From a virus (lineage: Duplodnaviria; Caudoviricetes), in IMG/VR virus record IMGVR_UViG_3300033067_001659, positions 1 through 39,230 of that record: 39,230 bases of DNA; one strand, 5' to 3'. The notes under the pieces are model-generated. The model saw only the letters and a list, made by a program, of their open reading frames with translations, had not been told where the DNA came from and did not search any database. Positions 15,455 to 39,230 of the stretch are shown here, in pieces; the first letter of the stretch is position 1; every line of letters begins with the position of its first letter. The position numbers were made by a program, and so were the translations under genes.

Positions 15455-15747
15455 TATTTATATCTTTTAGACTTATAAGCAAATCCTAGTATTGGTATAG
15501 ACCTATTCTGAATAATACTTTTAAGTTCTTCATAAGGTTTATCTATTTTAAAATAAGTACCATTAGATAACACTTGTGAATATTTTTTAATATGTTTGCC
15601 ATTTTTAGAATCTATAAATTCTTCGAGTTCAATAGTATCTAAATCAAATAGTTTTTTAATCTTATCATTCTTAACTAATACTTTCTTTGTAGAACTAGTA
15701 ATATCTGATAACACTATTAATTCATAATTTCTCATACTACATAACAA
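15454..15747 (-). CDS. Hypothetical protein
   Basis: 97 aa, coupled in operon; start may be the second Met (15735). Confidence 0.6.
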   Translation of the reverse strand: MLCSMRNYELIVLSDITSSTKKVLVKNDKIKKLFDLDTIELEEFIDSKNGKHIKKYSQVLSNGTYFKIDKPYEELKSIIQNRSIPILGFAYKSKRYK

Positions 15748-16241
15748 TTAAAACTTAATCCTTTATGTGTTTTTCTAATTCCTTTTAATATTTTATAAAC
15801 AGATGATTTATCAATATTAAATTTTTCTTTTATACTATTTATATTACCTGTATGAATAATTTTATTATTTTTAATAACATTTATAATTTTATTATATTTA
15901 CAATTTAGTCTGTCTTGTCTAATTTTTTCTTTATATTCAGCAGTCATAATTGTTCTATCTGGTAAAAAAGAATTAAATCCTTTTTCTAAAGAATTATATT
16001 TAATCATATTTTTCTTTTCTAAATTTAAAAGTTCTGATTCTTCACATTTTTCAATTATTTCAAATCTAATAGTTTTTAATGTATATTTATTTACAAATCT
16101 TTGTAAATGAATTGAATGATGTTTATTTAATTCTAAATCTCTTTTGTGTTTCCAAAGTCTTCCTTCAATATCTTTAGAACTACCTATATAAACTCTATCA
16201 TCTAAAATATTATATATTTTATATATACCACATATTTTCAT
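15732..16241 (-). CDS. GIY-YIG homing endonuclease with C-terminal NUMOD/HTH-like DNA-binding part
   Basis: CGIYKIYN...VYIGSS..I..R...H and E; start re-called to MKICG (TAATG overlap with upstream stop). Confidence 0.88.
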   Translation of the reverse strand: MKICGIYKIYNILDDRVYIGSSKDIEGRLWKHKRDLELNKHHSIHLQRFVNKYTLKTIRFEIIEKCEESELLNLEKKNMIKYNSLEKGFNSFLPDRTIMTAEYKEKIRQDRLNCKYNKIINVIKNNKIIHTGNINSIKEKFNIDKSSVYKILKGIRKTHKGLSFNCYVV

Positions 16242-16555
16242 TACCAGTTTCCTAATGGACATTGACTATCAGATTTAAGTTTTGCTGGTAAAAAACAACC
16301 ACATCCTGGATATTCTTTTCCTTCAAATCTTAATTCTTCATTATATTGGAAATCTTTAACAGCTTTACCATTGACTCTTTTAGAACAATAATTGTTTACG
16401 TTAAGAGGACATGATGCGCAAACATTAGCTTTAATATTGGCAGACTCTTTAACTGAGTCATTATCAAACCAATAATTACCAAAGCCTTTTATAATATCAT
16501 TTAGTTTTTTAAAATTCATACTCATCGTTAAATCTTTTTTGACTTTTTTGACCAT
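16241..16555 (-). CDS. Small Zn-finger-like protein
   Basis: CxxCP...C...CGC.L.AK...CP.G.W pattern; true start probably downstream (MSMNF). Confidence 0.65.
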   Translation of the reverse strand: MVKKVKKDLTMSMNFKKLNDIIKGFGNYWFDNDSVKESANIKANVCASCPLNVNNYCSKRVNGKAVKDFQYNEELRFEGKEYPGCGCFLPAKLKSDSQCPLGNW

Positions 16556-17264: not shown

Positions 17265-17276
17265 ATTATTAATATA
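17265..17276 (-). promoter_or_regulatory. Candidate late promoter TATATTAATAAT
   Basis: 11/12 match to the motif at 9232-9243, in a short intergenic gap. Confidence 0.45.
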
Positions 17277-17287
17277 ACATTTTTTAG

Positions 17288-17746
17288 TTATCTATCCAAA
17301 TTTAAATGATAATAATCAGATGTTATCTTTTCTATTAATTTCTTAAATTCTTTCTTATCAAGTTTAATAGCATCTGTATTAAGTAATCTATAAGTCATTA
17401 TATTCTTACTATAAACAGCCAAATCCCTTGTTTTATCATGTTCTAATTGCTCAGGGTTATCTTTATGATGTTTACCATCTAATTCAATACAAGCGTCTTG
17501 CTCTGGTAGATAAAAATCAAGTATATAGAACTGGTATCTATTAATAAATAGTATATGCTGGAACTTGTAAGTTATTTTCATATCATCTAATAAAGACATA
17601 ATATGTTTCTCGTAGATTGTAATATTGTTAATTAACTCTTTACGACGAGAATTGGCGAGTCTTTTAGGATGAACAAATTCATTACGAGCTTTCCTTTCAG
17701 TAGCTTTAATAAAGTTAAGTTCCCTAGGTTTTTCTTTTTTAGCCAT
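17288..17746 (-). CDS. DUF559 / Vsr-like PD-(D/E)XK endonuclease
   Basis: T..E, FQH, YILDFY, IELDGKHH, D..RD motifs. Confidence 0.85.
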   Translation of the reverse strand: MAKKEKPRELNFIKATERKARNEFVHPKRLANSRRKELINNITIYEKHIMSLLDDMKITYKFQHILFINRYQFYILDFYLPEQDACIELDGKHHKDNPEQLEHDKTRDLAVYSKNIMTYRLLNTDAIKLDKKEFKKLIEKITSDYYHLNLDR

Positions 17747-17754
17747 AATATATA

Positions 17755-18100
17755 CCTTATCTCTATTAGAGACATAATAATTTAAAATTAATCAATAAGA
17801 GTTCCTTGCAAATCAAGCTTTTTGATTTACTTAACCCATATAGGGTTATTTTGATTTTAAGGCTTATTAAGACCGTTTAACTTTACCAAAGCATATTTAC
17901 TATGCAGTAGGGATTACTTTCAACCTGGTTTATTCCAGAGCCATTCTACGCTATTGTACCCCTTGAATTAACTTACCTATATTTAAAATCATTTTGAGAA
18001 GAGGGTTAATCTCAGAACTATGGAACTCTAAAGTTGCTCCTACAAAACCCTGTTCACTAAAAGTTCCTTTCTCAAGGGATTATTTCAGCTATGACTCTCT
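17755..18100 (-). ncRNA. Unassigned ~350-nt structured RNA / leader upstream of DUF559 nuclease
   Basis: No ORF; nested long-range pairs 17798-17805/18022-18029 and 17852-17860/17983-17991 plus local hairpins; promoter-like motif at 18101-18112. Confidence 0.55.
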
Positions 18101-18112
18101 ACTATCAATATA
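18101..18112 (-). promoter_or_regulatory. Candidate late promoter TATATTGATAGT
   Basis: 11/12 match to recurring motif. Confidence 0.5.
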
Positions 18113-18153
18113 ACACTTTTATTTCAATTATCCTAATTTTTTAGCAATTATTT

Positions 18154-19371: not shown

Positions 19372-19389
19372 CTGGCGGTTGGGTTGGTT

Positions 19390-20140
19390 ACAAATAGTTT
19401 GGTTACATGAAGCGTTAGCTGAAATGTAGCCTTACTATTTGTTATATATTAATCAATTATTAATCATTAAACAAGTTATTATGAATCAATTAGGATATAA
19501 TAGTAATTCACAATATGCTATATTTTGGGTTGAGGTAAAAGCATGTTATGATGATTTGTGCCAGGTATGCACATATAATTTGGCATTACAAGCTCAATTT
19601 AGAGCTGTTACAAGTAATTAAATATATTGTAAGTTTATATATTAAACAAGGATAAATGGTAGAATTTTAACTCGTTTACTACCAGACTGTTGTACTTACA
19701 TAATATTCAATTGGCTTCTAGTGCATTAGGAGCATAGTTTGCTAGAATGGTTGTCTAATTAGCAACGCATTTATATGTTTAACTTAAACAATTGATAAGA
19801 GTGATTCAAACCAATGAATTTGCTCTTTTAGAATGAGTGAATGGTGGATAATAAAGTCAATAAAAGTCCACCATTCCTCATTTATTTACACTACAAGACT
19901 CAAGATAATTTCAATTAATTATCTTTAAATTATAATATATAACTAATTCTAATCAATTACTGCGCATAAATGCTTGTAATTAATAAGAATTAGTAATCAA
20001 ATAATCATTATATAATAATATATTATCCTTGAATGGTTTAATATGTTGTATTATGGTGATTATTTGATTAATTATTTGGATTTGTTAGTGGATTTGATGA
20101 TTTATTTGCAGTCCACATCTAACCAATTATCATCCAACAC
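19390..20140. other. Array of long imperfect hairpins
   Basis: Stems 19390-19398/19434-19442, 19839-19848/19867-19876, 19994-20007/20057-20070 (14 bp perfect) and others. Confidence 0.6.
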
Positions 20141-20198
20141 TCTCAACATAACATCTAATTATTACCCTCTCTAAATAATTTATAGCTTAAAATTAAAG

Positions 20199-20252
20199 TG
20201 CGACTGATGATTGCTGAAATGCATGAATCATCTATTCTTTAGATGAATCGCA
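20199..20252 (+). ncRNA. Type I hammerhead ribozyme candidate (U15.1-A16.1 variant)
   Basis: tgcga-CTGATGA-ttgc/gcat-GAAT-catcta/tagatg-AA-tcgca; all three stems in correct order, stem II weak. Confidence 0.55.
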
Positions 20253-20634
20253 GGTTGAGGGTCTGTTAAGTATGCCCAAGATACCCATGAGTTTTAATAG
20301 TTGTTGATGCTTAACATAAAAACTATTTTAAAATAATCGTATGAATATCTCATACTATATAATCTAAAGATATACCTTAGATTACGAATCTAACAATCTC
20401 TGTAAACAGAGTTTAACCTTTAGCAAGTTATGAATATAGTATATTATAAAAGTATTGCAGTGGCTTGACAACCACAATATAAAGTGTGTCATTATGATAA
20501 TTAAAAGAATGCTATATTGTGACTAATATAGGGCGTAAGCTGAAGTCTGGGGAGTCCTAATCCTCATTAGTGGGCACATTAGTAATAATGTTGCCCTAAA
20601 TACATTGGATTTATTAACCTTTAAAACAAATCTT

Positions 20635-20796
20635 ATGCTTTTAAAAACAATATTATTACTATTGTGGATGATATTAACCTTAATACTAGTATTTAGTTTA
20701 ATAGGTTTTGCATTATTAATAAGTTCTAATAATTATCAAAAAACAACTTGGATGGAAATTGGTACAAGTTTAGTTGATAGTATTATTGAACCATAA
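20635..20796 (+). CDS. Small membrane protein
   Basis: MLLKTILLLLWMILTLILVFSLIGFALLI hydrophobic helix; start re-called to ATG 20635. Confidence 0.6.
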   Translation: MLLKTILLLLWMILTLILVFSLIGFALLISSNNYQKTTWMEIGTSLVDSIIEP

Positions 20797-20913
20797 AACA
20801 CTGCTTTCATACTTTACATAGAAAGTATTAAAATTAAGCTTATTATGCTATTAATTGTAAAACCGAAAACTGAAGATATACAGTTCATTAGTACACGTAA
20901 TAAGCTTATTTTT

Positions 20914-20988: not shown

Positions 20989-21129
20989 AATTGAACAATG
21001 GCGTAGATAAGGGTTACTTCGACTGTTTAATCGTGTGGTCGGTGGTTCGAATCCATCCTAATAGTAATATTAGTAGCTCAGTTGGTTAGAGCACAAAAAT
21101 TTCTCTTATCGTCTTTTCCTTGTTCAATT
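20989..21129 (+). ncRNA. YrlA-type Y RNA (circularly permuted tRNA mimic)
   Basis: T arm (21041-21057) precedes an acceptor stem closed by a GTAA loop, then D arm (21076-21092); enclosed by terminal stems 20989-20998/21120-21129 and 21006-21013/21103-21110. Confidence 0.8.
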
Positions 21130-22084: not shown

Positions 22085-22525
22085 ATAGCTGGTTGTTTTT
22101 GATTATATTCATAGAAAAGTTTAACTTGAAGATAAAAGTAAAGTTGAAATACCTTAACACTTAGGTAATTTGGATATAAGTGATAATCAAAAGATTTTAG
22201 GAGATAGTTCATACCTTAGAGTCGTTTACGTCTTGATGGTAGAGAATTGTAAAGCATACTTGAAAATACTAATATTAGACATAGCACTACTTACGAGGGC
22301 CAATGTACATTTAGCTGTACATCGTAGTAACAGTAGGAACATTAGTATATAATCTAAGTAAAGTATGTAGTGGCAGCTAAGTGTTAAACTATAGGAGTAA
22401 TTACCTATGTATGCGGGAACTTAGCCTCAACAGTAGTAATAGTGTTGAGTAGTTGTTAAACTTGTTTGAATTAACATTCCTAAAGTAAATAACAACATTG
22501 TGCAACTGGAGTGATTACCAGTAAC
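22085..22525 (+). ncRNA. Unassigned large (~440 nt) structured RNA
   Basis: Long-range helices 22154-22164/22377-22387 (11 bp), 22254-22261/22361-22368, 22266-22273/22341-22348, 22098-22106/22183-22191, twin GGAGTRATTACC hairpins. Confidence 0.65.
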
Positions 22526-27454: not shown

Positions 27455-27846
27455 GGGCCAGCCAGGTATTGCCTTATAACAACAATTAAAATAAGTAAGT
27501 AGTGAGATGTTTACTATCACTTAAATCTATGTTTACAGCCTTTTATCAGGCAATGTGGTAATCACTAACGAATTAGGTTCAAAAGCAGATTTGGCCTTTT
27601 TAGTTAAAAAACAAAATGCTTCTGCAAAAGTTATTAAATTAACAACTGCTGTTGAAGCAGAACTAGAGTTAGCTGCCTAGATTCAACAAAGTGTGGTCAA
27701 TTATAGTTTTATATATTAATTATAAAAGAAGCATTAAAAGCATTTAAAAATATAATAGTCTGTATTAGACGATAAACTTATACTAAACTTATAGAAAGTT
27801 TTAAGAATTGTTATGAGAAACGAGTGTTCGATTCACTCCTGGTCCA
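27455..27846 (+). ncRNA. ssrA: tmRNA
   Basis: gggccag/ctggtcc-A acceptor with G3-U70, T arm gagtg-ttcgatt-cactc, helix 2 cttataacaa/ttgttatgag, ATG-less frame ending ELAA-stop (27680). Confidence 0.92.
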
Positions 27847-27920
27847 CGGCGGCAGTGGTTTAAAAGTAACGCCTTAATGATAACTAGTTTATCAGAGTTC
27901 GAAGTGAATGCTGCGCTAAT

Positions 27921-33112: not shown

Positions 33113-35005
33113 ATGGTAGTAATATATGATATAGAAACTTTAGCATCATGTTTCACTTATACAGATTACTGTATTGAAACAAAGAATATTTATCAAGCAG
33201 TATTACATAAAGATAGATTTGAATTATCATCATTTTATAATCATTTAAAAAAAATTAAAGGTCAAATAGGATTTAATAATTTAGAATTTGATTATCCTAT
33301 TATTCATTATATATTAAAATGCTATAATGAATGGATATGTGAAAGAAGTTCTAATGAAATAATAATAGAAGATATTTATAATGAAGCACAAAGATTAATC
33401 AAATCTCAAAACAGTCCTGTTAAAGTTTATAATGCTATTAGAGCAAAAGATGTTATTATACAACAATTAGATTTATTTAAAATATGGCATTACAACAATA
33501 AAGCTCGTATGACTAGTTTAAAATCGTTAGAGATTAGTATGAATTATCCTAATGTAATGGATATGCCTATACATCATAATGATATTAATATTAGTTTAGA
33601 ACAAGTTGATGGTATATTAGAGTATAATTTAAACGATGTAATGGCTACTTATGAGTTTTATAATAAATCTTTGGCCAAAATACAATTAAGAAAATCACTT
33701 AAAAAACAGTATAATATTGATTGTTTAAACTGGTCTGATAGTAAAATAGGAGAAGAATTGATTTTAAAGCTTTATTCTAAAGAAAATGATATTACACCTT
33801 ATGAACTTAAAAATCTACGCTCAGAAAGGCTAAAAATAGCCTTAAAAGACATTATTTTAGATTATATTTCATTTAATTCATCTGAATTTACTAATTTGTT
33901 AAATTATTTTAAAAATAAGGAAATAACTGAAACTAAAGGTTCTATTGAATGCTCAGTAATTTATAAAGGTTTTAAGTATGATTATGGTACTGGTGGAATT
34001 CATGGTTCTGTTAAATCTGGAATATATGAATCAGATAATAAATATATGATTATTGATGCTGATGTGTCTAGTCTTTATCCAAGTTTAGCTATTACTAATG
34101 GATTTTATCCTGAACATTTAGGTTTATCTTTTGTAGAAATCTATAAATCTATTATTACTTTAAGATTACAGGCTAAAAAAGAAGGTAATATGGTATTATC
34201 TGATGGATTTAAACTTGCTGCAAATAGTGTTTATGGTAAATCTAATGATAAACATAGTTTTTTATATGACCCTAAATTTACAATGGCTATTACAGTTAAT
34301 GGCCAACTATTACTTACTAAATTAGCTGAATATTTAACTAATATACCTGAATCAATGGTAATTCAAATTAATACGGATGGTATTACAATGAAAATACCAA
34401 GAAATCATGAGCAAGTATATTATGATATTTGTAAAGAATGGGAAAAAGAAACTAAATTACAGTTAGAATATGTAGAATATTCTAAAATGGTTATTGGTGA
34501 TGTAAATAATTATTTAGCAGTAACTACTAAAGGTAAAATTAAAAACAAGGGTAGATTTGAAGTGGATAAAGTAGTTGGTAGTGAACCAGCTTACCATAAA
34601 GATAATTCTTTTAGAATTATACCATTAGCTTTACAAGAATATTTTGTAAAAGGTACTCCTATTGAAGATACTGTTAAAAATCATACTAATATATATGATT
34701 TTTGTGGTCGTCAAAAGTTTAAAGGTGAAGATTGTGGTTTTATAAGATTCATTAATGATGATAAAATTACAGAAGAAATACAACAAAAAAATGTTAGATA
34801 TTATATATCTAATAGAGGTGCTAGTTTTATAAAAAACTATGCAAAAGGAAGCCAAGAAATAATAAATAAAGGTTATTTGGTTACTATATTTAATAAATAT
34901 ATTGAAAAAAATATTAATAATTACAATTTAAATTATGAATTTTATATAAAAGAAATAAATAAAGAAATAAATAACATAATAAATAAACAATTAAGTTTGT
35001 TTTAA
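33113..35005 (+). CDS. DNA polymerase family B with 3'-5' exonuclease
   Basis: ExoI YDIET, ExoII GFNN..FD, ExoIII YN.ND, motif A DADVSSLYPS, motif B KLAANSVYGK, motif C INTDG. Confidence 0.93.
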   Translation: MVVIYDIETLASCFTYTDYCIETKNIYQAVLHKDRFELSSFYNHLKKIKGQIGFNNLEFDYPIIHYILKCYNEWICERSSNEIIIEDIYNEAQRLIKSQNSPVKVYNAIRAKDVIIQQLDLFKIWHYNNKARMTSLKSLEISMNYPNVMDMPIHHNDINISLEQVDGILEYNLNDVMATYEFYNKSLAKIQLRKSLKKQYNIDCLNWSDSKIGEELILKLYSKENDITPYELKNLRSERLKIALKDIILDYISFNSSEFTNLLNYFKNKEITETKGSIECSVIYKGFKYDYGTGGIHGSVKSGIYESDNKYMIIDADVSSLYPSLAITNGFYPEHLGLSFVEIYKSIITLRLQAKKEGNMVLSDGFKLAANSVYGKSNDKHSFLYDPKFTMAITVNGQLLLTKLAEYLTNIPESMVIQINTDGITMKIPRNHEQVYYDICKEWEKETKLQLEYVEYSKMVIGDVNNYLAVTTKGKIKNKGRFEVDKVVGSEPAYHKDNSFRIIPLALQEYFVKGTPIEDTVKNHTNIYDFCGRQKFKGEDCGFIRFINDDKITEEIQQKNVRYYISNRGASFIKNYAKGSQEIINKGYLVTIFNKYIEKNINNYNLNYEFYIKEINKEINNIINKQLSLF

Positions 35006-35810: not shown

Positions 35811-36704
35811 ATGATTAAATTAAAAAAAAAATTAACTAAAAAAGTTAGTACTTTAACTTCTTTCAGACCAATGATTAGAAGCAGACATCCTTCACATGAT
35901 GTTTTAAGAAAAAATCTACCATTATTACCTTTTAGAAGTGTAGTAAGATTAGGTAGCACAACTACAATAACTGATGGAAAACAGCGTGTAGAATGTAATA
36001 CTGTACAATCAGTTAAAAATAGTGCTAGTAAATTATTAATGAAACAATGTTTTACTAGAGTTGGTGTTAAAACTGCTGATTGGTGGACATATCCAAATAC
36101 ACATAATGTTTTTACAGCACATGTATATGAAAATGGTGGTAGAGGTTATTTTACAGGAGCTACTGATATTATTAATTTACCATATCCAATTATTTGTAAA
36201 TCACTACATGGTTCAAGGGGTGAAGGTAATTCGTTGGTTAAAAATCAACAAGAATTAGAAACATTTATACAAAATAAAACTCTTAGTAATTATATATTTG
36301 AAAAATATTATACTTATTCAAGAGAATATCGTATTCATGTTACAAATGAAGGATGTTTTTATACTTGTCGTAAAATGTTAAAAAATGGTACTCCTGAGAA
36401 TTTAAAATTTCAAAGACATGATGATAATTGTGTGTGGATTTTAGAAACTAATCCTTCATTTAATAAACCTGTTAATTGGAATGAAATAGTTGATGATTGT
36501 GTTAAAGCTCTTAATTCATTAGGTTTAGATATTGGTGCTTTTGATGTTAAAGTTCAAAGTGCTAAAGACCAAAAAGGAAGAAATAGAACTAAATGTGAAT
36601 ATATTATTATTGAATCTTGTAGTGCACCAAGTTTTGGTGATATTACTGCTCAAAAATATATTGAACAAATACCTAAAATACTTAAAAGAAAATATGGACG
36701 ATAG
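35811..36704 (+). CDS. ATP-grasp (RimK-like) peptide ligase
   Basis: SASKLLMK, YPIICKSLHGSRGEG, FEKY..YSREYRIHV, ALNSLGLDIGAFDV, IIESCSAPS. Confidence 0.88.
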   Translation: MIKLKKKLTKKVSTLTSFRPMIRSRHPSHDVLRKNLPLLPFRSVVRLGSTTTITDGKQRVECNTVQSVKNSASKLLMKQCFTRVGVKTADWWTYPNTHNVFTAHVYENGGRGYFTGATDIINLPYPIICKSLHGSRGEGNSLVKNQQELETFIQNKTLSNYIFEKYYTYSREYRIHVTNEGCFYTCRKMLKNGTPENLKFQRHDDNCVWILETNPSFNKPVNWNEIVDDCVKALNSLGLDIGAFDVKVQSAKDQKGRNRTKCEYIIIESCSAPSFGDITAQKYIEQIPKILKRKYGR

Positions 36705-37245
36705 TAAATTTAGAATTCTTGAAAATAGATGTTTAAGTTATCAAACTTCATTATTTACAAGTAATTCTGCAAATTTTAAAATATTAAACGATTATATTAA
36801 TGAATTTTTAAAAAGAAATAAAAAGTCAAAAAATGAGTATGCTGTAAATGTTGTTTTAAATAGAACATATGCCGGTAATAATTATTGTGATTTTGTTATA
36901 AATTTTAATGAATATCGTTCAGAAGAATATATTAATAATTATACAGCACATGATAATTGTAAAATAATTCTTAGTGAATTATTTGGTAATTGTTCTACGG
37001 TTTGTTTACATAATATTTTTGCTAATAATAGTGACCAAATTCATGATATAATGATTACTGCTGAAAAAATAATAAATTTATTAGGTTATAGTACAGCATT
37101 ATATACAGTTTCTAATGGTGTTAGAGTTAATAATAATTTAGAATCTGAATATTTAATTAAATTTAATTGGGAAGTGATTGATGAATATATTAATAAAAGA
37201 AATGATAATAATATTAAAATATATAGAAAAAAATTAAAAGGATAA
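36694..37245 (+). CDS. Putative GNAT-like acyltransferase
   Basis: Start re-called to MDDSK; C-terminal AEKIINLLGYSTALYTV...YLIKFNWEVIDEYINKR.....IYRKKL resembles the GNAT C-terminal half. Confidence 0.5.
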   Translation: MDDSKFRILENRCLSYQTSLFTSNSANFKILNDYINEFLKRNKKSKNEYAVNVVLNRTYAGNNYCDFVINFNEYRSEEYINNYTAHDNCKIILSELFGNCSTVCLHNIFANNSDQIHDIMITAEKIINLLGYSTALYTVSNGVRVNNNLESEYLIKFNWEVIDEYINKRNDNNIKIYRKKLKG

Positions 37246-37248
37246 AAT

Positions 37249-38064
37249 ATGAAAAAAGAATTAATTAAAAATTTTACATTAGGAAGCGACCCTGAAATGT
37301 TTTTATATTCGGAAAAACTTTCAAAATTTGTACCTGTTTGTGGGTTAGTTGGTGGAAATAAAGATTTAGGAATTCCTATTAATGAACACGAACCTCAATT
37401 TACAATTTTAGAAGATAATGTAGCATTAGAAGCTACAATGCCTCCAGCAATTTCTAAAGAAAAATGGCTTACAAATTTTAAATTTGTAAAAGATTATTGT
37501 TTTGAAACTATATTAAAGCCTTTAGATTTAATTCCTATGTATGTTGGAGCAGCAAGATTTGAACTTGCAGATTTAGATAGTCCTGAAGCTCAATATATGG
37601 GTTGTAGTACTTCTTATTCAGCATGGAATAATGAATCTCATATTGTAAATAGAGATGATTTAACATTAAGAACTGCTGGTATGCATGTGCATGTAGGTTA
37701 TGATAATAACAGTCCTGAAGTAAGTATTCAACTTATTAAAGCTATGGATTTATTTTTAGGCGTTCCTAGTGTATTATTAGACCCTGATACTGAAAGAAGG
37801 ATTATGTATGGTAAAGCTGGTGACCATCGTTTAAAACCTAAATATGGTGTAGAATATCGTGTTTTAAGCTCATATTTTATGTCAACTGATGAGTTATTAG
37901 GTTGGGTTTATGATAATGCTGTAAAAGCCATAGAATTTGTTAATTATGGTGGTATTATTACTAATCCTGAAGAAATTATTAAGTGTATTAACACTTGTGA
38001 TAAAAAAATGGCTAAAGAAATTATTGAAGATTATAAAATTAATGTATTAGAATATGCTAATTAA
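37249..38064 (+). CDS. phiEco32-like COOH-NH2 ligase type 2
   Basis: TLGSDPEMF, LEDNVALE, MGC, LRTAGMHVHVG, RR.MYGKAG, YGVEYRVLS. Confidence 0.9.
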   Translation: MKKELIKNFTLGSDPEMFLYSEKLSKFVPVCGLVGGNKDLGIPINEHEPQFTILEDNVALEATMPPAISKEKWLTNFKFVKDYCFETILKPLDLIPMYVGAARFELADLDSPEAQYMGCSTSYSAWNNESHIVNRDDLTLRTAGMHVHVGYDNNSPEVSIQLIKAMDLFLGVPSVLLDPDTERRIMYGKAGDHRLKPKYGVEYRVLSSYFMSTDELLGWVYDNAVKAIEFVNYGGIITNPEEIIKCINTCDKKMAKEIIEDYKINVLEYAN

Positions 38065-38101
38065 ATATAAAAAATATAACAATTAAATATTATGTAATAA
38101 T

Positions 38102-38128
38102 ATGTGTGGAATTTTGATGATTCGCTAA
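38102..38128 (+). pseudogene. Stub MCGILMIR* resembling a GATase-II N-terminus
   Basis: atg tgt gga att = MCGI, canonical Ntn-amidotransferase start, placed where the GATase gene would be expected to begin. Confidence 0.5.
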
Positions 38129-38135
38129 AAATGTG

Positions 38136-38147
38136 TATATTAATAGT
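38136..38147 (+). promoter_or_regulatory. Candidate late promoter TATATTAATAGT
   Basis: Exact match to motif at 9232-9243(-); abuts ATG 38148. Confidence 0.55.
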
Positions 38148-38705
38148 ATGGAAAATACTACAAAATTATGCAGAAAATGCAATCAACAAAAACAATTAAC
38201 AGAATTTCACAAATGTAAAATTCATAAAGATGGATTATATAATCATTGTAAATCTTGTAAAAAAGAATACGATTTATTATATAGACAAGGTGAAAAAGTT
38301 CAAAAAGCTCAAAAATCTAAAGAATATAGAAATAGGAAAAGAGAGTACGTAAAGTATATATCTACTACAGACCCTAGAAAAATATTATATGCTTCGGCAA
38401 AACAAAGAGCAAAAAAGAATAATTTACCTTTTAATATAGAATTATCTGATATTATAATACCTGAATACTGTCCTATTTTAGACATTAAACTTGAAAGAAA
38501 AGAATATGGAAAAGGTGGAAGTTTTCAACCTAATTCACCAAGTCTTGATAAGATAATTCCCGAGAAAGGCTATGTTAAAGGAAATATAATGGTTATATCC
38601 ATGAAAGCAAATATAATAAAAGGAAACGCAACAATTAATGAATTATTAAAATTTTCGGAAAGTATGATAAATTTAATTAAAAATAAAGGATATGGTAGTA
38701 GTTAA
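38148..38705 (+). CDS. HNH-like homing endonuclease with N-terminal Zn finger
   Basis: CRKC...CKSC; DIIIPEYCPILD, SPSLDKIIPEKGYVKGNIMVISMKAN. Confidence 0.85.
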   Translation: MENTTKLCRKCNQQKQLTEFHKCKIHKDGLYNHCKSCKKEYDLLYRQGEKVQKAQKSKEYRNRKREYVKYISTTDPRKILYASAKQRAKKNNLPFNIELSDIIIPEYCPILDIKLERKEYGKGGSFQPNSPSLDKIIPEKGYVKGNIMVISMKANIIKGNATINELLKFSESMINLIKNKGYGSS

Positions 38706-39230
38706 CATATTTTTAGGAATAATCCTATGGAACTTGATTGTATCAAGTTTAAGCTACAAATTTAAATTAAAAAAAGATAAACTATACTGTGGTATGGTTG
38801 GATTTAGTGGTAAAAATAATTTTGACCTTGATAAAATAAAAACACTTATCTATATAAATAGTATAGAAAGAGGTGAGGATTCTACAGGATTCTATAGTCC
38901 AAATAATGGACTTAAAAAGTGTTTAGATAAAGGTTGGGATTTTGTTACTTCTGATAAAAATAAAATAGAATTAGATACTGTTTTTATGGCACATGTTAGA
39001 AGTGCTACTGTAGGATTTAAAACAGATGTTGCAAATGCTCATCCTTTTAAAAGAGGTGAGTGGATTTTACAACATAACGGTACTTTAAAAAACCATTATC
39101 CATTACTTAGAAAATACAAATTAAAATTTGCAGATTATAATGTTGATAGTGATGTTATTGCAGGAATGTTAGAAGCTGCTGGTGATTTTAGACCTTTATC
39201 TGAAATAAATGGTAGCGCAGCTTTAATTAT
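38692..39230 (+). CDS. Class II (Ntn) glutamine amidotransferase, partial, with 32-aa hydrophobic leader
   Basis: Missing from ORF track (no stop in window). CGMVG at 38788, ERGEDSTG, MAHVRSATVG, NAHPF, QHNGTL, VDSDVI. Confidence 0.88.
   Translation, partial: MVVVNIFLGIILWNLIVSSLSYKFKLKKDKLYCGMVGFSGKNNFDLDKIKTLIYINSIERGEDSTGFYSPNNGLKKCLDKGWDFVTSDKNKIELDTVFMAHVRSATVGFKTDVANAHPFKRGEWILQHNGTLKNHYPLLRKYKLKFADYNVDSDVIAGMLEAAGDFRPLSEINGSAALI

Follow-up and report, generated by a model that had tools for sequence, protein, structure and literature searches.

HEARO/omega RNAs are noncoding RNAs of ~300 nt encoded immediately ahead of the gene for a compact nuclease, IscB, and in such OMEGA systems the pairing of RNA and nuclease is obligate and the RNA carries a terminal guide. 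According to passages of PMC2988022, free-standing endonucleases of phage T4 cut hundreds to thousands of bases away from their own genes and co-convert the flanks. SegB, whose recognition site is a conserved stem-loop motif of tRNAs, drives inheritance of the tRNA region, and since SegB sites exist in T4 itself, immunity by sequence change is not a rule (sections of PMC2330249). For the Vsr/EDxHD enzymes, excerpts of PMC3239194 describe the active-site residues, dimers and a pseudopalindromic site. Large covarying, pseudoknotted RNAs are represented in tRNA-rich phages by ROOL and GOLLD (PMC12286853, in part), and phage phi14:2 makes abundant long noncoding RNAs of unknown function and relies on the host polymerase for its late genes (parts of bioRxiv 2020.03.07.982082).

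Here, we analyzed a DNA stretch of 39,230 nt (the window; IMG/VR record IMGVR_UViG_3300033067_001659), recorded as a linear virus genome with 43% completeness. The window belongs to a crAss-like phage: it encodes the Crassvirus major capsid protein, tail ring protein, portal and large terminase, the last sharing 31 to 36% identity with Crassvirales records in the best 40 of 150 matches listed. An initial annotation had proposed a structured RNA of ~350 nt with its own promoter motif directly upstream of a Vsr-like nuclease and had read the pair as a candidate mobile unit or, alternatively, as a regulatory leader of the late operon. Our analysis points to a conserved RNA gene that persists with or without the nuclease, while the nuclease likely cuts the DNA of one RNA hairpin, Ha, in nuclease-free rivals and repair likely copies the RNA allele together with the nuclease; we assign this reading a probability of roughly 0.55. 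In our view, the locus holds a real new RNA family with a probable homing passenger.

The locus resembles those of SegB, SegF and SegG of T4 ("intronless homing") in that an intergenic, patchily distributed nuclease lies next to a conserved gene and the flanking allele co-travels (PMC2988022, in part). The site of SegB is a stem-loop motif conserved in RNA genes (sections of PMC2330249), and comparison of relatives suggests Ha DNA as the putative site of the present nuclease. However, the T4 Seg enzymes are of the GIY-YIG or HNH type, whereas our nuclease has a Vsr/DUF559 fold, and the predicted target is a large novel RNA gene instead of a tRNA. Among EDxHD enzymes and Vsr, I-Bth0305I (PDB 3R3P) provides the best fold match, with acidic and histidine residues that are invariant here, but I-Bth0305I has a group I intron host and an N-terminal NUMOD region, whereas the nuclease of the window has 152 aa, a basic arm only and no intron. 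In nuclease carriers, the likeness to HEARO/omega RNA is limited to the ~300-nt RNA directly upstream of a compact nuclease, as we found no Rfam HEARO match, no RuvC/HNH or IscB/IsrB/TnpB protein and, in 132 kb of phage DNA, no guide segment. Moreover, in contrast to the obligate OMEGA pairing, the nuclease accompanies 5 of 32 RNAs and is absent from five of five near-complete genomes. ROOL and GOLLD come closest in kind yet represent another family: they measure 650 to 800 nt or more and reside inside a tRNA island, whereas our ~300-nt RNA has no Rfam match to either, falls short of the length above 550 nt expected of them and is located at the head of the late module. Finally, in contrast to group I introns and RNase P RNA, no P7 guanosine site, P3-P7 pseudoknot or flanking exons were recognized here, and neither a match to the Rfam RNase P models nor a P4 pseudoknot was found.

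The RNA lies between two promoter-like motifs, with or without the nuclease

Within the minus-strand late module, the element lies not far from the head, and a GC-skew switch is nearby at ~19000 (Table 1); the other arm of the window carries tRNAs and a tmRNA. P1 comprises two blocks resembling the Bacteroidetes −33/−7 consensus, and we take it to be a putative promoter. Its 12-mer, pointed out in the initial annotation, is present at 18112-18101 (−) as the one exact copy in the window. The motif alone is not above chance (30 near-matches observed versus 23.3 ± 5.1 expected), and what lends it weight is that it recurs at 17276 and 9243 in the same context, as well as ahead of the RNA in 8/8 related loci displayed. 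With the same spacing, the P1 motif also precedes two other late genes of the window. No ORF of at least 60 aa was found between the 12-mer and the 152-aa ORF.

Table 1. Coordinates of the RNA-nuclease element and its neighbors in the window
Feature	Position	Strand	Basis or remark
P1, promoter-like element ahead of the RNA	18101..18136	−	Motif and spacing recur before the RNA in 8/8 related loci displayed
Structured noncoding RNA gene, subtype A	17798..18100	−	nhmmer matches to relatives, covariation, covariance-model match
5′ hairpin H1	18056..18089	−	7-bp stem, 3 compensatory pairs among A rows
Hairpin H2	18003..18050	−	Tip variable; asymmetric internal loop conserved
Long irregular stem around core domain	17852..17991	−	Encloses three-way junction and tetraloop hairpin 17905-17891
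Hairpin Ha	17939..17952	−	In three-way junction; best-conserved 14 columns of nuclease-free B copies
Hairpin Hb	17925..17938	−	Adjoins Ha in three-way junction
DUF559/Vsr-like nuclease, 152 aa	17288..17746	−	DUF559 above Pfam cut-off; fold match; invariant residues
P2, second promoter-like element	17265..17300	−	Overlaps last nuclease codons; right-hand border of exchanged block
Winged-helix-like gene, 111 aa	16916..17251	−	First gene behind P2 in late module; synteny anchor

Searches with the nuclease led to five loci (L008 to L012), each with an RNA homologue directly upstream (nhmmer, single query, E values of 1e-23 to 1e-26), here referred to as subtype A. Loci collected via two neighboring genes mostly lacked the nuclease and carried another conserved sequence of ~300 nt behind the same promoter-like motif, subtype B, which comprises the forms B1 and B2. 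Among 23 loci collected via a neighboring gene, 22 contained the RNA family ahead of the late operon (21 of subtype B and one of subtype A), L247 being the sole syntenic locus without it. The nuclease was located within 800 nt of the RNA in 5 of 32 distinct copies, and in genomes of 93 to 100% completeness the RNA was present in 5/5 and the nuclease nowhere, with a positive control (G010). The two subtype-A loci L033 and L087 lack the nuclease as well; there, the RNA, which in L033 is 93% identical to that of L012 over the model columns, runs straight into the second promoter, and no clear nuclease remnant was seen apart from a weak AT-rich likeness. This is the outcome that the initial annotation had named as refuting its reading: 27 of 32 distinct copies stand without the nuclease, and even subtype A persists in related phages that lack it.

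Searches beyond the collected loci added little. The covariance model described below (R1) found no family member upstream of bacterial DUF559 genes (0/80 loci, 80 of 210 searched; control L264 found), and the DUF559 homologue of cr106_1 is without the RNA family. At an E value of 0.01, R1 matched none of cr106_1, ProJPt-Bp1, Fpv20, cr52_1, cr114_1, phi14:2, crAss001 and L247, a search of eight sequences that had no positive control and may miss the family; its one trace was a 36-nt piece with an E value of 0.07. Blastn of the subtype-A and B1 regions against 50,697 phage records returned nothing meaningful. A pattern scan for subtype A yielded three real loci of 68 (L033, L046 and L087), and a further scan gave no new contig among the matches listed. 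Two of 28 pattern-scan loci (L109 and L116) were dropped as chance matches in coding DNA, and L002 to L006 proved to be 18-residue chance matches. Among four sequencing runs compared as assembled contigs, the one recorded as RNA contributed a single 193-nt contig over the nuclease at a depth of 2.9, a signal uninformative as to expression.

Rfam searches of the window and relatives in both gathering and E-value modes returned tRNAs and a sub-threshold YrlA match only. Titles and abstract openings of the literature contained no report of this RNA. PMC10690425 lists 8,495 candidates of 29 to 151 nt, so that its supplements could hold pieces of the RNA; six sample ids are absent from six of its supplementary files.

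Several neighboring sequences merit mention. In L247, an unrelated noncoding stretch of ~240 nt (L247:1520-1760) without Rfam or R1 match lies between the same two promoter-like motifs. Directly upstream of the cr106_1 DUF559 homologue (NC_055871.1), at the head of the late module, ~340 nt without annotated gene or R1 match (L007:4560-4925) show a promoter-like motif ahead and complementary-looking ends, and may represent another RNA family arranged in the same way. A 221-aa ORF a short distance upstream of the nuclease-free A RNAs (L033:567-1232, L087:1784-2449) shows an HNH-like C-terminal motif by eye and no Pfam match; it might be another mobile nuclease acting on the region. Inverted repeats surround P2 (window 17265-17330, same place in relatives) upstream of the winged-helix gene and form a possible autoregulation operator. 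The 111-aa product is provisionally labeled "RepL-like"; an Atlas look-up gave HTH look-alikes only.

The RNA is a covarying family of ~300 nt

The single-sequence fold of the window RNA is only marginally better than shuffles (z of −1.6, 5 of 100 shuffles as good, opposite strand z of −1.7), and therefore the case for structure rests on the relatives. RNAalifold on eight subtype-B2 rows revealed compensatory change at 33 of 63 pairs. In this structure, 96% of the cells pair, while partners slid by one to three columns keep 2 to 7 compensatory pairs, a control that favors the structure as it was derived from the same rows. The model R1 was built from B2 rows alone, with no A or B1 row, and scored B1 rows at 82 to 126 bits. 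It also matched five of the five other A rows at full length (46 to 49 bits), and its best match in the window was 18084-17790 (19.9 bits, E value of 1.5e-4). When 26 of the 32 distinct RNAs were fitted to the model, leaving out five with a long insertion and one near-duplicate, compensatory change was found at 51 of 63 pairs, a count in which the fitting leans to the model. By these comparisons, the RNA is a covarying family of ~300 nt, and the covariation of the upstream RNA among relatives that the initial annotation had asked about is borne out.

Furthermore, the H1 loop can pair with the strand after H2 (window 17999-17995). The own-pair duplex reaches −3.6 kcal/mol versus −2.0 kcal/mol for cross-subtype pairs, and values below −2 kcal/mol were obtained in 23 of 26 rows with different letters in each subtype. 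The two segments likely form a pseudoknot, and the alignments suggest that the family as a whole is probably pseudoknotted. Within subtype A, a 5-bp stem joining both RNA ends keeps 5/5 pairs in 5/5 relatives, and the hairpin 17938-17925 is kept 4/4 in all six rows. In the family as a whole, the 3′ part comprises 3′ hairpins and a conserved purine run. In five otherwise B1 RNAs (L018, L019, L021, L107 and L122), the H2 tip is ~45 nt longer and unrelated, and this tip is an exchangeable module.

The ORF-free structured RNA behind a promoter-like motif was thus recognized correctly from the window, with the correction that its conserved length is ~300 nt (18100-17798) and not 350 nt. The six stems originally quoted all pair fully in the window but are not all conserved in relatives. 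The 8-bp long-range stem (18029-18022 with 17805-17798) failed this comparison, as four of its eight positions pair in 5/5 subtype-A relatives. The other small hairpins and the 9-bp stem keep one to five pairs in the MAFFT columns, although the model assigns corresponding helices to these places.

A likely free-standing homing endonuclease of the Vsr/EDxHD type

Nine close homologues were identified with 44 to 56% identity over 47 to 82% of the length of the nuclease, and in all five carrier loci the nuclease constitutes a stand-alone ORF of 145 to 184 aa. The AlphaFold model (mean pLDDT of 85.9, residues 1-19 unresolved) shows one catalytic domain, preceded by an N-terminal arm that is basic and poorly ordered. 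The top fold match was the catalytic domain of I-Bth0305I (3R3P; E value of 2e-4, TM of 0.77 by target), followed by mitoribosomal proteins and then Vsr, while the sequence profile matched 3R3P weakly (E value of 0.01). Residues E46, D77, E88, D90, H94 and D104 are invariant in 16 rows and agree with the Vsr/EDxHD residues given in the available part of PMC3239194; the conserved E, D, H and D of a Vsr-like catalytic domain, the EDxHD hallmark, are therefore present. Pfam detected no NUMOD repeats, and there is no intron host. DUF559 look-alikes in the Atlas fall into several viral clusters. Fold and residues agree with the initial description of a 152-aa Vsr-like enzyme with a basic arm, and together they suggest that the nuclease is likely a free-standing homing endonuclease of the Vsr/EDxHD type.

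RNA allele and nuclease were exchanged as a block

On the left, as far as the end of P1, the loci L012 and L020 share 95% identity, and on the right, starting at the nuclease stop, 93%. Between these flanks, L012 has 884 nt (subtype A plus nuclease) and L020 has 316 nt (B1). Likewise, L033 and L103 share 93 to 94% identity on either side of the RNA. In a host tree of 30 loci based on two neighboring proteins, subtype A occupies four places, three of them with the nuclease, and a single clade of A carriers was rejected (p-AU of 8e-84 with the window, 1e-36 without it). A B2 RNA also occurs in a host clade that is otherwise B1 (L115). On this comparative evidence, RNA allele plus nuclease have been transferred between phages jointly, as a block.

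The nuclease itself is intergenic, optional among close relatives and outside any intron or intein. It has spread across host lineages together with flanking sequence. The proposed RNA-nuclease mobile unit stands insofar as allele and nuclease were exchanged together, but an obligate unit is not supported, given the many RNAs that occur alone. A target-site duplication flanking the nuclease was considered and dropped, as relatives show block exchange between promoters. In other loci, the slot between the RNA and P2 holds different genes without a Pfam family (L242:1471-1749, L258:503-832 and L024:4757-5075), and a relative of the L258 gene is located behind the promoter in L033.

Hairpin Ha is altered in every nuclease carrier

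Columns 198-211, which correspond to Ha, are the most conserved 14-column window in the 19 nuclease-free B rows (0.974). As 6 of these 19 rows had been found by a pattern demanding the Ha motif, nuclease-free B RNAs found via proteins alone were counted separately, and the standard Ha was present in 18/18. In the nuclease carriers, Ha was altered in 5/5 and standard in 0/5. The B2 RNA of L248 is accompanied by the nuclease and shares 78 to 81% identity with nuclease-free B2 rows. Of the 65 columns that are invariant in the 19 nuclease-free B rows, it departs from them in three, all of which lie in Ha: one G-C pair is flipped to C-G and the adjoining bulged base is changed, with pairing preserved. 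By leave-one-out, 0/19 B rows differed at the Ha columns. The same three changes occur in every A row, including the window, whose Ha differs from the B form at 9 of 14 columns and is also unlike that of L248. Ha lies 169 to 205 bp upstream of the nuclease start.

An altered Ha was also found in the nuclease-free A rows L033 and L087. The resulting table (5/5 carriers versus 2/21 nuclease-free RNAs, Fisher p of 3e-4) is not independent evidence, because the Ha change may have arisen only once. In an RNA tree without the hairpin columns, L248 did not join subtype A, but such joining was not rejected (p-AU of 0.35).

We infer from these patterns that Ha DNA is the putative target of the nuclease and that the Ha of the window is a putative immune form. 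In a mixed infection, the nuclease, probably acting as a dimer like I-Bth0305I, would make a double-strand break ~170 to 205 bp upstream of its own insertion point. Carriers would be immune owing to one flipped base pair and one changed bulged base, with the RNA fold kept. Resection would reach the nearest shared sequence, the two promoters, so that the whole RNA allele would be co-converted while repair copied the carrier's allele and nuclease into the rival. The target would thus be the most constrained stretch of the RNA gene, with a compensatory flip as the cheapest escape, and nuclease-free subtype-A copies would have arisen later, by loss of the nuclease or by conversion without it.

Several observations count against homing. 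RNA alleles also move without the nuclease (L115; L033/L087), other cargo genes can occupy the slot that follows the RNA (L242, L258), and the nuclease is without the NUMOD DNA-binding repeats of I-Bth0305I that could read a long site. Furthermore, the window contig itself holds two copies of the B-form 14-mer with two mismatches (33536-33549 (+) and ~22202-22215 (−)). The first two of these observations would also be expected if the nuclease were a passive or host-directed cargo of a variable slot, having entered once on a variant haplotype and moving with it by ordinary recombination between promoters. Such a course would agree with the single origin of the hairpin variant that the tree did not reject, and breakpoints at the promoters would follow from homology alone. 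We nevertheless consider passive carriage rather unlikely, since the L248 change strikes exactly the best-conserved 14 columns and nothing else invariant, nucleases only 40 to 50% identical occupy the same point in three lineages, and subtype A has spread to four places of the host tree, three with the nuclease.

In a further explanation, RNA and nuclease would form a ribonucleoprotein in carriers, with the altered hairpin as binding site and the RNA regulating, activating or guiding the enzyme. The hairpin form shared by L248 and the distant L008 group would fit this, as would the basic N-terminal arm, the fold matches to mitoribosomal proteins, the match to an Atlas cluster with the RNA-binding RAP family in 17% of its members, and the likely co-transcription from P1. 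However, the enzyme is missing beside 27 of 32 RNAs, and the hairpin of the window departs from both the B form and that of L248. A HEARO/omega-like guide, cited as a precedent in the initial annotation, found no backing either: between carrier RNAs and other phage DNA (132 kb), the longest matches were 13 to 15 nt versus 13 to 16 nt in shuffles, and no stretch longer than 11 nt is common to A RNAs and B genes. Nor was a variable terminal segment seen, the ends of the five non-window A RNAs being nearly invariant and not hypervariable. A ribonucleoprotein thus appears improbable to us.

Equally improbable is a combination of the two, in which a minimal Vsr/RAP-fold nuclease would home into the RNA gene and also bind its own re-coded hairpin, the RNA being a new large pseudoknotted class that is near-core in a single crAss-like clade and might be catalytic or serve as a polymerase-modifying antiterminator. 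If true, it would present a protein-only homing endonuclease becoming an RNA-partnered nuclease outside the IscB/TnpB lineages.

Even under the homing reading, two aspects are new. One is the ~300-nt RNA family itself, which covaries strongly, comprises three exchangeable subtypes and is unmatched in Rfam. The other is a target predicted for a DUF559 protein from comparative data, in which three structure-preserving hairpin changes mark every carrier. The predicted Ha target makes it possible to ask if DUF559 proteins that stand alone in phages are homing endonucleases directed against RNA genes, and it serves as a warning that a large RNA beside a compact nuclease may be a target and not a guide.

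What the RNA may do

By analogy with what is proposed for ROOL and GOLLD, our tentative preference is a stand-alone late RNA made by the host RNA polymerase, which would adopt a compact tertiary fold and act as a trans scaffold or decoy. The regulatory leader of the late operon initially considered survives in part, as a cis-acting large processive antiterminator or stabilizing leader of the late transcript from P1. Such a cis RNA, which would be compatible with a homing nuclease, is possible but clearly less probable. It would fit that the RNA is always first behind P1, in sense with the late module, that no terminator-like site was found on the minus strand from 19100 to 16800, and that late genes of phi14:2 are made by the host polymerase (parts of bioRxiv 2020.03.07.982082). 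Against it, the downstream genes have a promoter-like motif of their own, the second one, in the loci displayed, the sequence after the RNA varies freely, and L247 has unrelated sequence at the same place. A translational leader is unlikely, because in most loci the RNA is followed by this second motif and not by a start codon.

The order of the core, with a long stem, a helix with an A-rich three-way junction, a tetraloop hairpin and a conserved single strand, resembles P3-P4-P5-P6-P7 of group I introns. The RNA might accordingly descend, as a ribozyme, from a group I intron or RNase P that lost its exons or changed its substrate, perhaps processing phage tRNAs, and nine ARAGORN tRNA/tmRNA calls on the window contig would suit such a role. 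However, regions of three subtypes gave no Rfam intron or RNase P match at E values up to 10, nor did a further search at E values up to 1. Exons are absent, with the RNA starting directly after the promoter motif, no P7-like partner recurs in every subtype, and the enclosing stem runs on continuously instead of forming a P8 hairpin. We therefore give a ribozyme very little credence, and the results of Rfam and of the search for P7-like pairing agree with the initial annotation, in which no group I core was recognized.

Other features of the window

The YrlA (Y RNA-like) match lies at 21034-21095 (+) just behind tRNA-Glu and scores 38.6 bits, below the gathering score of 69; the tmRNA is located at 27455-27847. 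At the GC-skew switch, an ORF-poor region of ~1.5 kb (19380-20900) contains a 49-nt imperfect inverted repeat (19977-20087) and is a candidate for an origin or further noncoding RNAs. In the same operon as the element, the window encodes a GIY-YIG endonuclease with a NUMOD-like tail (15732-16262 (−)), whose homologues were found only in L020 and L023 among 26 loci compared, making it a second optional nuclease. Finally, a gene cluster at 35811-39228 (+) with ATP-grasp-like, COOH-NH2 ligase and glutamine amidotransferase genes likely encodes a peptide or base modification pathway.
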